NCBI RefSeq assembly: GCF_013315695.1
Contig: NZ_CP054353.1
DNA from: Escherichia coli
GTDB taxonomy: Bacteria > Pseudomonadota > Gammaproteobacteria > Enterobacterales > Enterobacteriaceae
DNA: 64,000 nucleotides
Strand: one strand, 5' to 3'
Below are positions 5,711 through 7,881 of the stretch, piece after piece. How positions within the stretch are numbered: position 1 is the stretch's first letter; every line of letters starts with the position of its first letter. The notes under the pieces were generated by a model. It made no database searches, was not told where the DNA came from, and worked only from the letters and a program-made list of their open reading frames with translations. Made by a program: the position numbers and the translations under genes.

Positions 5711-5902
5711 TTAAAATCCTGCCGGGATTTCGTTATTATCCTGGTGAATAACTTTATCGACCGGATAACAGTTGCCTGGAATTTTCTGTTCGGTTGCTGC
5801 TGCCATACATTCCTGCATTGTTCTGTGAACACTGACTGCAATATCAACTGGCTCTCCGGAAACAAGAAAAACTGTCAGAACAAGCACAAATGCTGAATTC
5901 AT
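5711..5902 (-). CDS. ydfD: YdfD-like small protein, 63 aa, N-terminal hydrophobic segment
   Basis: MNSAFVLVLTVFLVSGEPVDIAVSV...; ATG overlaps the dicB stop (ATGA); RBS AAGGA. Confidence 0.7.
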   Translation of the reverse strand: MNSAFVLVLTVFLVSGEPVDIAVSVHRTMQECMAAATEQKIPGNCYPVDKVIHQDNNEIPAGF

Positions 5903-6087
5903 TGTGCACATCCTTTTGGCATCAGACGTAAACGAGCCAGCATTGAAACAATGCATATTTTATTTAATAGCTCCCGTTCTTGTTTTCTCTTGTTAATGGC
6001 ATCTTCAGTAAATACTGGGTTACTGATAGTGACACCAATTTCAAAACAACCTTCAGACGTATTAACGTTTGGTAATAACGTTTTCAT
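5899..6087 (-). CDS. dicB: Cell division inhibitor DicB, 62 aa
   Basis: MKTLLPNVNTSEGCFEIGVTISNPVFTEDAINKRKQERELLNKICIVSMLARLRLMPKGCAQ; RBS GAGGA 7 nt upstream. Confidence 0.85.
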   Translation of the reverse strand: MKTLLPNVNTSEGCFEIGVTISNPVFTEDAINKRKQERELLNKICIVSMLARLRLMPKGCAQ

Positions 6088-6256
6088 TATCGCGTCCTCA
6101 ACAATGAATTTTGTGATGCAGTGCCTGGTGCCTCCAGGTGACGTTAACCAGTTAACAATTAACGCCGGATACAGAGAATCCACCCATAACACTGTTTTTG
6201 GTTTTAACTGTTCCGCGTGCGCTCAGCCGCATTCACCACATCACAAAATTCACTTT

Positions 6257-6314
6257 AAAAAGGGCGGCAGAGCAGTCACGGAGTAAAACTGATACCGCCA
6301 AACGTCACCAGAAA
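6257..6314 (-). ncRNA. dicF: DicF small RNA (ftsZ-targeting) with intrinsic terminator
   Basis: Reverse strand reads TTTCTGGTGACGTTTGGCGGTATCAGTTTTACTCCGTGACTGCTCTGCCGCCCTTTTT, matching the DicF sequence as I recall it, upstream of dicB. Confidence 0.85.
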
Positions 6315-6654
6315 ATTGATAACAGAGGGCGTTGCAGCGGGGTTGTCACTTAAGCGTATGGTCAACCTGACAACCCGGTGTCCTCAACGGGGAAGGAATA
6401 ACCCCGCCATACTTACCGCCGCGCCATTTCGCGGGTTGCCACAACCGGAAGCGCACGGTCGACGAAAATTTAACGACAGGCTATCTATGAACCAGCTACC
6501 TCGCCGTGCGCTTTCGCGTTATGGTCTGACTTTTCATGGAAATATCCTTTCAGTAAACTGTCAGTGCCGGATGCTCACCCGTGTCCGGCGCACGCACTCC
6601 ACCTCACCCGTGGAGAACTCCTTAATTACCAACCTTAGCTTCGTTGGTTAGCTA

Positions 6655-6873
6655 TTAACGCGGGTATGTAATCATTCTGGCAATGCTTAATGCCGCTGCT
6701 TTTTCCAGCCTGGTGATATCCTGCTCCAGAGAGAACAGATTTTCAGCCTGCTTAGCCCTGGCTTCATTAGCCCATTTCAGATCCTGCGCTGCATTAATTT
6801 TCTGGCGCATCCACTCATAAAGTTCATCATCGGTATAGTCTGGCGCGATGATGACAGGTTCTCGTTTCTGCAT
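6655..6873 (-). CDS. ydfC: YdfC-like protein, 72 aa
   Basis: MQKREPVIIAPDYTDDELYEWMRQKINAAQDLKWANEARAKQ...; same strand and order as in the Qin dicB operon. Confidence 0.65.
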   Translation of the reverse strand: MQKREPVIIAPDYTDDELYEWMRQKINAAQDLKWANEARAKQAENLFSLEQDITRLEKAAALSIARMITYPR

Positions 6874-6944
6874 GTCAGCTCCTTGTGGTTCGCATTGCCT
6901 GCTTTTAACCACGTCAGGCGAGGTGGTATCCTCTGAGGGGTCTG

Positions 6945-7301
6945 TTACTCGAGAGGAAATTGGTTATGAATACAATCAAGTTTTCTTGCCCAGAATGTGG
7001 TGGCGAAGTCTTTGACACATCCTTTAAGCCGCAGGGCTCTGACAGTTTCGCGGGAGCCATCTGCAAAAATTGTGGTCACCTTGTAACTGAAGATGAGTCC
7101 TCGCAGTTCGATGACGAAATCGTTGACAATATCTTCGGTGCACTCACCAGAGACTTTCTGAAATAAAGACGCATACCGCTTAGTTACCGCTCTGATAATT
7201 CTTACCTGTCCGGCAATGGCGCTGATATCAATATAAAGCGCCATCGCTGTTTCTTTGCTGATCCCTGGACGCCTTCCATTCTGATGTTTGACTTCGCCCA
7301 C
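6945..7301 (-). CDS. First ORF of the dicB-type operon (ydfA/ydfB-like region); extent uncertain
   Basis: GTG start with RBS GAGGA 7 nt upstream, just downstream of a TTGCCA-17-TAAATT promoter; MGEVKHQNGRRPGISKETAMALYIDISAIAG...; fully antisense to the 6966-7166 ORF. Confidence 0.45.
   Translation of the reverse strand: MGEVKHQNGRRPGISKETAMALYIDISAIAGQVRIIRAVTKRYASLFQKVSGECTEDIVNDFVIELRGLIFSYKVTTIFADGSRETVRALRLKGCVKDFATTFWARKLDCIHNQFPLE
6966..7166 (+). CDS. Candidate zinc-ribbon protein, 66 aa, antisense to the operon ORF
   Basis: MNTIKFSCPECGGEV...CKNCGH (two CxxC pairs), GAGG RBS; opposite in direction to the surrounding leftward operon. Confidence 0.3.
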   Translation: MNTIKFSCPECGGEVFDTSFKPQGSDSFAGAICKNCGHLVTEDESSQFDDEIVDNIFGALTRDFLK

Positions 7302-7382
7302 TGAGAAATCCTCTGTTTCCCCTTAACGCCGGGGTAGCGGAACTGTTTGCTGAGAACACCGTGCGGTGTCTTGATGGAGATT

Positions 7383-7411
7383 AATTTAGAATAACCTAAC
7401 AGATGTGGCAA
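7383..7411 (-). promoter_or_regulatory. Putative sigma70 promoter of the dicB-type operon
   Basis: Reverse strand TTGCCA, 17 nt, TAAATT; overlapped by operator-like palindrome 7421-7436. Confidence 0.4.
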
Positions 7412-7420
7412 GTGTTTTTT

Positions 7421-7436
7421 GTTAGATTGATCTAAC
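7421..7436. promoter_or_regulatory. Palindromic operator-like site GTTAGATTGATCTAAC
   Basis: Near-perfect inverted repeat TTAGA..TCTAA downstream of dicA, overlapping the -35 of the leftward promoter. Confidence 0.45.
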
Positions 7437-7473
7437 AAGAAGAGTGAGGGAATCTAAGTGTCTGAAAGGAGTG

Positions 7474-7881
7474 TTATTTTATTGATTTGTTTTTACGTGC
7501 TTTAAGCATTTCTTCGAAGAGTTTATTGAAATTCTCTACTCTTGCGCGCATTTCAGACAGCAAGGCTTCCTGCTCGGAGGATGGAAGAGCATCGAATAAT
7601 TCGATCAATTCTTTGTGGCTGGGAGTTAACTCGGTTTCCACATGAAGTTCTTGTGCTGGCACTGGTGCCTTGTCTTCGTCACCAAACATTAGCCATGTAG
7701 GCGAGCACTTCAGCGCATCAGCTAAAGCAAACAACCGCTTCCCGACTGGTTGGGTTTCGTCTCTTTCCCATTGTGAAATTGTGACGTGAGCTACCCCAGC
7801 GAGGCGAGCGGCTTCTCGTTGTGTTAGGCGTAATTCTTTTCGTCGTGCCAGAACTCGCTGGCCTAGGGTTCTTGTATCCAT
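7474..7881 (-). CDS. dicA: DicA-like repressor (XRE-family HTH), 135 aa
   Basis: MDTRTLGQRVLARRKELRLTQREAARLAGVAHVTISQWERDETQPVGKRLFALADALKCSPTWLMFGDEDK...; divergent from the cro-like gene. Confidence 0.85.
   Translation of the reverse strand: MDTRTLGQRVLARRKELRLTQREAARLAGVAHVTISQWERDETQPVGKRLFALADALKCSPTWLMFGDEDKAPVPAQELHVETELTPSHKELIELFDALPSSEQEALLSEMRARVENFNKLFEEMLKARKNKSIK

Follow-up and report, generated by a model that had tools for sequence, protein, structure and literature searches.

In the Qin prophage of Escherichia coli K-12, the repressor DicA silences the promoter dicBp, and the antirepressor Rem derepresses it 165-fold, causing a filamentation that depends on both DicF and DicB (PMC10448788). 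DicA is not cleaved through RecA. Instead, it is relieved by Rem, and together with DicC it constitutes a bistable switch (PMC10448788). The small RNA (sRNA) DicF is made from the dicBp transcript by RNase III, which yields a 190-nucleotide (nt) form, and by RNase E, which yields a 53-nt form (PMC10448788; processing also PMC5069750); it pairs with ftsZ and other mRNAs in an Hfq-dependent manner (PMC5069750). By way of ZipA, DicB brings MinC to the septum, and it also blocks ManYZ-dependent entry of phage DNA (PMC6832061), while YdfD inhibits IspG and lyses dividing cells, an activity that DicB counteracts (PMC8835842). The dicF locus is found in numerous E. coli strains, with O157:H7 having several copies (PMC5069750), and the functional phage mEp460 carries dicB, dicF, dicAC and rem (PMC10448788). 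Here we describe the counterpart of this system at positions 5711-7881, on the minus strand, of a 64,000-nt stretch of E. coli DNA (contig NZ_CP054353.1), referred to below as the window.

The dicA/dicC-dicBF module and its control

It is highly probable that 5711-7881 comprises the immunity region and the early-left (PL-equivalent) operon of a lambdoid prophage seated at a tRNA-Ser gene, that it is the same dicA/dicC-dicBF module as in K-12 Qin, and that the prophage around it holds every gene yet is very probably defective in packaging. The initial annotation, drawn from the sequence by itself, had read along the minus strand a repressor, a first operon open reading frame (ORF), ydfC, DicF, dicB, ydfD and a large gene of 813 amino acids (aa). 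The ORF list and an Rfam scan recover every one of them, at or near the positions proposed. The elements of the module, together with rem, are as follows.

14375-14626, plus strand: rem, homologue of the Qin antirepressor gene; 77/83 residues (93%) identical to K-12 Rem, and annotated as rem in relatives
7962-8189, plus strand: dicC, encoding a Cro-like protein of 75 aa, divergent from dicA; NCBIfam NF007282, 166.7 bits against a cutoff of 130; Pfam P22_Cro
7882-7961, no strand assigned: dicA/dicC divergent control region, with the operator TGTTAGAAATATCTAACA, a perfect palindrome, at 7931-7948
7474-7881, minus strand: DicA-family repressor, 135 aa; NCBIfam NF007257, 224 bits against a cutoff of 101, over residues 1-134
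7383-7437, minus strand: dicBp (PL-equivalent) promoter, from a promoter scan and an operator pattern search; its position matches K-12 dicBp
7311-7373, minus strand: conserved 5' leader of the operon transcript, 63 nt, about 97% identical to K-12, with flanks at about 70%
6945-7244, minus strand: first operon ORF, orf99 (phrog_21318, match at 9e-66), 99 aa
6966-7166, plus strand: antisense zinc-ribbon ORF of 66 aa (ECs_2282 family); NCBIfam NF047912, 57.3 bits against a cutoff of 37
6655-6873, minus strand: ydfC, 72 aa, function unknown; 69/72 residues as in K-12 YdfC; phrog_1744
6262-6313, minus strand: DicF sRNA; Rfam RF00039, 76.7 bits (gathering threshold 48), E 3.6e-15, model positions 1-52 of 52
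5899-6087, minus strand: dicB, MinC-dependent cell-division inhibitor of 62 aa; 62/62 residues as in K-12 DicB
5711-5902, minus strand: ydfD, lysis protein of 63 aa; 60/63 residues as in K-12 YdfD; overlaps dicB by 4 nt
3176-5617, minus strand: exonuclease ORF, 813 aa; Pfam Exonuc_VIII over residues 57-189 and an Rv2179c-like domain over residues 632-803

The identification is carried by nucleotide alignment to the K-12 dicB operon. Positions 5626-6873 correspond to the K-12 segment from ydfC through ydfD at 97.6% identity over 1,248 nt, without a gap, a similarity judged far beyond chance. The alignment of this block and the identities of its products agree in making the module homologous to the Qin dicBF operon. 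DicF, which had been recognized in the initial annotation, is indeed matched by its Rfam family and equals K-12 dicF base for base. It is placed between ydfC and dicB and ends in its own intrinsic terminator, GGCGG...GCCGCC followed by a T-run. The putative 190-nt RNase III precursor, 6262-6451, bears no substitutions relative to K-12: the 567-nt spacer between ydfC and dicB contains seven mismatches, all of them at 6506-6647 and thus outside the precursor. The lengths first read for dicB and ydfD, 62 and 63 aa, are likewise borne out, with the K-12 identities listed above. DicB is matched by Pfam DicB (PF05358; 136.8 bits against a cutoff of 27) and by NCBIfam NF049927 (132.8 bits against 100), and YdfD by Pfam DUF1482 (89.2 bits against 25; 1.5e-25). 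Similarity is lower on the immunity side, where the dicC/dicA region is 71.5% identical to K-12 in nucleotide sequence, and positions 6874-7315 have no K-12 counterpart in the nucleotide alignment to the Qin locus. The module is thus a correct identification of an already known system, a cassette that has been studied since the 1980s.

The repressor has Pfam HTH_3 as its only domain, with no Peptidase_S24. It shares 75/135 residues with K-12 DicA and 67/135 with the allele in NZ_CP124442 (L003), the closest complete RefSeq E. coli genome, which is 99.4% identical to the window, carries another immunity allele and an intact terL, and served as the reference for annotation. Against this genome, the segment 7390-8047 stands out: DicA is 51.5% and DicC 80% identical within it, while both sides are at 99.4%, so that the immunity cassette has been cleanly swapped. 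DicC is closer to its K-12 homologue (62/76 identical). Its gene opens the rightward early operon, continuing into a ydaT/cII-like gene, O and P, and it belongs to the module although it lies just beyond 5711-7881.

A sigma-70-like dicBp lies 60-90 nt downstream of dicA, with TTGCCA as its -35 and TAAATT as its -10 element (7411 to 7383, minus strand). Immediately upstream of the -35 element is the candidate operator TGTTAGATCAATCTAACA (7420-7437), a perfect palindrome, and a copy with two mismatches (7384-7401), also a candidate operator, covers the spacer and the -10 element. At aligned positions K-12 has TGTTAG/CTAACA half-sites, and opposite the intergenic operator at 7931-7948 it carries TGTTAGTCATAACTAACA; such shared half-sites hint at possible cross-immunity. 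The TGTTAG-N6-CTAACA pattern is weakly enriched over the whole window (four matches against 1.55 expected, a count reached by 4 of 100 shuffles). Since this enrichment is mild, the argument for the operators rests on position and homology, not on statistics. Congruent with the assignment of the promoter, the K-12 transcription start site, as computed from the published RNase III site (813/814) and the 190-nt species (PMC10448788), falls at the aligned promoter. LexA control of rem was considered as well but finds no support, as no perfect CTGT-N8-ACAG box is found near 14375.

Sequence identity, promoter and operator architecture, rem and the att sites are read directly from the window, whereas every molecular activity in the scheme that follows is taken from K-12. 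In the repressed lysogen, the DicA-family repressor would bind TGTTAG-N6-CTAACA operators at dicBp and in the dicA/dicC intergenic region. Because these operators flank or overlap dicBp and lie between dicA and dicC, both early operons would be off. In keeping with the published picture of DicA (PMC10448788), the repressor lacks a domain that RecA could cleave. Release would be expected through the prophage's own Rem, or else through a flip of the DicA/DicC switch that is spontaneous or driven by stress. The transcript from dicBp would then run through the leader, orf99, ydfC, dicF, dicB, ydfD, the exonuclease gene, a DUF4224 gene and int. From it, RNase III would release the 190-nt form of DicF and RNase E the 53-nt form, the 3' end lying at the sRNA's own terminator, and DicF would act with Hfq to block translation of ftsZ and other mRNAs. 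DicB would bind MinC and carry it to the septum through ZipA, so that the Z-ring is dismantled; the DicB-MinC complex would also inhibit ManYZ and thereby exclude phages that inject their DNA through it. YdfD would inhibit IspG and lyse dividing cells. The net outcome of derepression would be filamentation, analogous to that caused by lambda Kil. Filamentation had been predicted at the outset, and it is a reasonable expectation, by sound analogy with the K-12 experiments, because DicF, its precursor and DicB are identical to their K-12 counterparts and because the promoter and operator layout and rem are conserved.

Several points weigh against this account of the locus. With only 55% identity to K-12 DicA, the repressor allele is predicted, from its sequence, to bind these operators and to respond to this Rem. 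The very same Rem (100% identical) is paired in the closest genome with a DicA allele that is about 51% identical. No inducing signal for Rem is known even in K-12 (PMC10448788), and here there is no perfect LexA box near rem. Convergent transcription, or an unrecognized terminator, within the orf99 patch could alter the amount of transcript that reaches dicF and dicB. Finally, the terminase deletion on which the packaging defect depends (below) could in principle be an assembly error, although a loss of 11 bp is untypical of homopolymer errors. As for the second of these points, the swap of the immunity cassette while Rem stays 100% identical suggests that one Rem may serve several DicA alleles, via their conserved C-terminal halves.

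Mosaic segments around the conserved core

Between dicBp and ydfC, the operon departs from the K-12 arrangement. The second half of the leader, the 33-nt segment TTCCGCTACCCCGGCGTTAAGGGGAAACAGAG, stays 100% conserved where the adjoining immunity regions are unrelated, and it is found with orf99 in 54/54 viral loci from IMG/VR. The leader was considered as a structured nut/put-like RNA and rejected in this role, as its fold is no better than that of shuffled sequences (z = -0.65). An Rfam scan of the whole window assigned it to no family at gathering thresholds, and no N-like arginine-rich protein was seen. The conserved segment could be a module junction, that is, a recombination linker, or an unrecognized cis element.

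Downstream of the leader, ydfA and ydfB are absent and the orf99 patch stands in their place. This replacement, the orf99-ydfC-DicF arrangement, is found in 936 of 5,426 complete E. coli genomes at coverage of at least 80%. Its RefSeq annotation is split: some genomes call the 99-aa operon-sense protein (WP_001240336.1), others a 66-aa antisense "ECs_2282 family zinc-binding protein". The two ORFs are nested, as the zinc-ribbon ORF lies wholly inside orf99 on the opposite strand and is exactly codon-aligned with it. An alternative GTG start at 7301 would extend orf99 to 118 aa.

Could orf99 be no more than a shadow of the antisense gene? This explanation was ruled out on three grounds. The Shine-Dalgarno (SD) sequence, ATG and N-terminal residues of orf99 are conserved in Citrobacter and Klebsiella copies; outside the overlap, its substitutions are biased to third positions (62/47/111, summed over pairs); and its frame is open in 28/28 distinct copies. 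As for the zinc-ribbon ORF, five copies all conserve its SD and ATG, its length of 66 codons and its four cysteines, and diverged Citrobacter and Klebsiella prophage copies retain both ORFs, each with its own SD and ATG. Inside the overlap, substitutions at zinc-ribbon codon positions 1/2/3 number 29/14/38 across genera and 8/3/17 among 28 distinct E. coli-type copies, lowest at position 2 and somewhat higher at position 3. These substitution patterns suggest constraint on both strands. Counting against the zinc-ribbon ORF being a gene, its frame bears two independent nonsense alleles, in 4 of the 28 distinct copies, and these alleles explain the inconsistent RefSeq annotation. Together, the first operon ORF is real, and the antisense ORF may be real as well. 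YnfU of Qin, entertained as a homologue of the zinc-ribbon ORF, was rejected, as the match is limited to 11 residues around a CxxC.

A more far-reaching proposal, which we put forward tentatively and consider somewhat unlikely, is that orf99 and the antisense zinc-ribbon gene form a true dual-coding locus, with both frames translated and both maintained by selection in prophages of Escherichia, Citrobacter and Klebsiella. Conceivably, the repressed prophage could express the antisense gene, and orf99 would be expressed only after derepression, making the pair a strand-switching device between lysogeny and lysis. If this proposal is true, the orf99/zinc-ribbon block and the invariant 33-nt leader segment, not DicF or DicB, are the undescribed part of the module. 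In any event, this inconsistently annotated antisense ORF pair at the operon head is, with the invariant leader segment, the only unusual item in the locus.

The other end of the operon is mosaic as well. K-12 homology ends at 5626, nine bases ahead of the 813-aa gene's start codon, which places a mosaic joint exactly there. The 813-aa protein is itself a chimera, in which about 615 aa resembling the non-catalytic N-terminal region of RecE are followed at the C-terminus by a 3'-5' exonuclease domain of the DEDDh Rv2179c-like type. Against the ExoVIII equivalog model NF007259 of NCBIfam it reaches 945 bits, short of the cutoff of 1269, and aligns to model positions 1-602 of 877 only. Neither the ORF list nor the relative's annotation places a recT-like gene after it. 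The initial annotation had taken this large gene as the full-length form of one disrupted in K-12. With respect to position, where K-12 has ydfE cut by IS2, and to the C-terminal catalytic half, the comparison stands; it fails for the fragment that K-12 retains. The 813-aa gene was accordingly rejected as an intact K-12 ydfE, as the remnant gives a BLASTP E value of 4.2, that is, no detectable similarity. An intact ydfE-type gene is instead present in phages Tritos, mEp460, PhiR42_1, HannyBb and Evi. The 823-aa exonuclease of Tritos is about 97% identical to the 813-aa protein over its C-terminal ~370 aa and unrelated over its N-terminal ~270 aa, and a further mosaic joint with the K-12/Tritos type is seen inside the 813-aa gene. 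By sequence, the gene is best described as a mosaic sibling of the one truncated in K-12.

Sixty phage records match the module, and in six of them the match extends over 80% or more of the ydfC-ydfD block: vB_EcoS-813R8, vB_EcoS-640R1, vB_EcoS-689R5, vB_EcoM-606R7, Tritos and PhiR42_1. Among the 54 IMG/VR loci, the second half of the leader, orf99 and ydfC occur together (54/54, 52/54), DicF is found in 41/54 and this DicA allele in 2/54, a linkage pattern that is the usual lambdoid mosaicism. The K-12 gene list, with its ydfA, ydfB and ydfE, is in this light one mosaic variant, and the invariant core consists of the leader, ydfC, dicF, dicB and ydfD.

State of the prophage and maintenance of the cassette

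The element that carries the module is bounded by two copies of a 62-nt core repeat, 97% identical and spaced 47,450 bp apart (a 47.45-kb element), next to mtfA. Its diagnostic features are these.

1775-1836, plus strand: attL, 62-nt core repeat, comprising the 3' part of a serU-type tRNA-Ser (tRNA at 1747-1833); from the direct repeat, the Rfam tRNA match and a relative's annotation of tRNA-Ser at this place
49225-49286, plus strand: attR, second copy of the 62-nt core, from the direct repeat
1889-2914, minus strand: tyrosine integrase, 341 aa; phrog_1 integrase matches residues 49-319
2914-3117, minus strand: DUF4224 small protein in the excisionase position; annotated in relatives, 100% identical and full length
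26495-28412, plus strand: large terminase (gpA type), broken; two tblastn high-scoring segment pairs, in frames 2 and 3

The initial annotation had called this an otherwise intact-looking prophage with full lambda-like morphogenesis genes. As to gene content, the description is apt: 60 of the relative's 61 annotated proteins are full length and free of stops in the window. The lambda-like set includes, for packaging and head, small and large terminase subunits, portal, S49 protease, decoration and major capsid proteins and FI/FII; for the tail, Z through J, Lom and the tail fiber; and, beyond these, holin, lysozyme, Rz, Q, RusA, O and P. The word intact does not hold. The att sites are present, but terL is frameshifted and the C-terminus of the integrase is altered. 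In terL, an 11-bp deletion, seen as an 11-nt gap in blastn against L003, directly follows a G-run that ends at 27898 and shifts the frame at codon ~468 of 642, splitting the GpA_nuclease domain so that profile positions 3-159 fall in one frame and 158-287 in the other. Of 1,859 genomes that carry the segment, none reaches an identity of 99%, and the matches listed span 611-612 nt against a query of 601 nt; by this comparison, the deletion is found in none of them and is private to this sequence. With its terminase nuclease domain frameshifted, the prophage is very probably unable to package DNA.

The change in the integrase is milder. At the 3' end of its gene (1889-1925, minus strand), a 13-nt tandem duplication, GAAAATATTCCAA twice over, replaces the last ~9 codons and alters the tail from ...PENIPSNSKCDFCH to ...PENIPRKYSK. 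PGAP calls the identical DNA of L003 a frameshifted pseudogene. A serious frameshift was nonetheless rejected, as the change is limited to the last ~9 codons, after the catalytic tyrosine region, and homologues align unbroken to residue ~330. The 341-aa integrase is also found, identical, in phage records ON470580 and ON470583. The DUF4224 protein next to it would, by its position, be the excisionase.

Three other explanations of the module and its setting have to be weighed. The one that survives best, and that we regard as a possibility of some substance though not the favored one, is that the cassette is kept mainly as a domesticated unit of benefit to the host, through exclusion of ManYZ-dependent phages by DicB and control of metabolism and virulence genes by DicF, and not for the lytic cycle. 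This would explain why the cassette stays nearly identical while the phage modules around it decay or are swapped. Module DNA has matches in 4,748 of 5,426 complete E. coli genomes, at a median of two places per genome, and the dicF/dicB core is 96-100% conserved amid mosaic immunity alleles, exonuclease N-termini and first ORFs. Consistent with a role outside the phage cycle, DicB protects against lambda infection (PMC6832061), and stationary-phase cells accumulate DicF even when the prophage is not induced (PMC10448788). However, functional phages (mEp460, per PMC10448788; Tritos) carry the cassette, so that the phage cycle either makes use of it as well or tolerates it, and host-benefit and phage roles are not mutually exclusive.

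Far less probable is that the element is a fully functional temperate phage, whose induction would lead from filamentation to a productive burst, with the module in a truly intact ancestral setting. Both att sites are there, the structural, lysis, replication and Q genes are all full length apart from terL, the same integrase occurs in two deposited phage genomes, and close relatives of the module reside in isolated phages. Against these stand the 11-bp deletion that frameshifts terL within its GpA endonuclease domain and that none of the 1,859 genomes with the segment shares, and the duplication-altered integrase tail that PGAP takes for that of a pseudogene. Least probable of all, by a slight margin only, is a transcriptionally dead module, in which the convergent zinc-ribbon gene that replaces ydfA/ydfB blocks read-through from dicBp to dicF and dicB: the stretch between dicBp and ydfC does contain a conserved antisense ORF, preceded by a strong SD of its own, and work in K-12 found no internal promoter upstream of dicF (PMC10448788), so that the downstream genes depend on dicBp, but the occurrence of orf99-ydfC-DicF in 936 genomes (coverage of at least 80%) and the linkage of DicF in 41/54 viral loci, at ~99.5% identity, are hard to reconcile with a dead operon, and a simple terminator scan predicts no minus-strand terminator in the patch.

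The preferred reading remains that of a Qin-type module in a prophage that has very probably lost the ability to package, and the element as a whole looks like an early stage on the way to a Qin-like cryptic element. It offers a natural example of a prophage with a full gene set that was inactivated by a private 11-bp terminase deletion while its toxic and protective cassette was retained. For discovery as such, the locus matters little, as publications or deposited records already show both the wide distribution of the module and that functional phages carry it. The initial suggestion that it gives a view of the ancestral intact context is accordingly not new, this context having been documented in mEp460 (PMC10448788), Tritos and others.

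A number of other features were seen in the window. A hokD/sok type I toxin-antitoxin locus lies at 13834-14155 (plus strand), with a sok match of 106.7 bits in Rfam and a hokD 100% identical to the relative's; it is as in Qin but without an adjacent relBE. Two phage-borne tRNAs, Ile and Arg in the relative's annotation, follow downstream of Q at 17368-17617 (plus strand). A match to the STnc100 sRNA (132 bits; 18317-18506, plus strand) lies directly against the 3' end of iraM, an anti-adapter gene (18535-18867, minus strand), beyond which is a SASA-family esterase gene (19128-21086). Past attR, the host segment 49287-64000 holds, by synteny with the relative, zinT, msrPQ, hiuH, hprRS, hchA and a porin gene, and it contains a match to the RseX sRNA (90.8 bits; 58113-58203, minus strand). 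In the relative, an IS1397 copy sits near zinT, and the other flank of the prophage bears a yersiniabactin island integrase next to tRNA-Asn.

Comparison with known systems

Qin is the closest described counterpart. Shared with it are the order and orientation of dicC, dicA, dicBp, ydfC, dicF, dicB and ydfD, the conserved leader, and the presence of rem and hokD in the same prophage. The two differ in their immunity proteins (DicA 55% and DicC 82% identical), at the operon head, where K-12 has ydfA/ydfB and the window orf99 with its antisense ORF, and in the exonuclease gene, truncated by IS2 in K-12 and full length, with a different N-terminal half, here. Moreover, the present prophage has an integrase, att sites and complete morphogenesis and lysis genes, unlike Qin, and it occupies tRNA-Ser, while Qin lies next to ydfJ and rspB.

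The module is also carried by the isolated phages mEp460_ev081 (LR597641), Tritos (OV696610), PhiR42_1 (PV340562), vB_EcoS-813R8 (ON470619) and vB_EcoS-689R5 (ON470583). Like the window, these have a repressor, small ORFs, ydfC, DicF, dicB, ydfD, an exonuclease of ~820 aa, xis and int. The ydfC-ydfD block of Tritos, PhiR42_1 and three vB_Eco phages is 96.8-97.9% identical to that of the window, whereas mEp460 matches from dicF onward only, over 70% of the block and at 93.7% identity. In the Tritos record, DicF, dicB, ydfD and the exonuclease are annotated one after another as in the window; Tritos departs from the window in having a different CI/Cro pair, first ORFs of the ydfA/ydfB type and an exonuclease N-terminus of the ydfE type.

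With regard to the large gene, the 813-aa protein aligns over its first ~615 aa with the model of ExoVIII, the RecE protein of Rac, whose C-terminal nuclease domain is replaced here by the DEDDh Rv2179c-like domain. The regulatory arrangement finds a parallel in GfoR/GfoA of the Salmonella Gifsy prophages, where a short helix-turn-helix repressor that lacks both an Ala-Gly cleavage site and an S24 domain is likewise paired with an antirepressor of ~83 aa whose gene lies elsewhere on the prophage (PMC10448788). LexA controls the Gifsy antirepressors, however, in contrast to the lack of a perfect LexA box near rem here. In its predicted output, finally, the operon may be likened to lambda Kil and KilR of Rac, small toxic products of the early-left operon of a lambdoid phage that, on induction, block Z-ring formation and cause filamentation (PMC3961180 for Kil). 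The comparison serves as a working analogy and does not imply membership in one family, as there is no sequence relationship: Kil acts on FtsZ in a ZipA-dependent manner, whereas DicB works via MinC and ZipA, and DicF is antisense to ftsZ mRNA.

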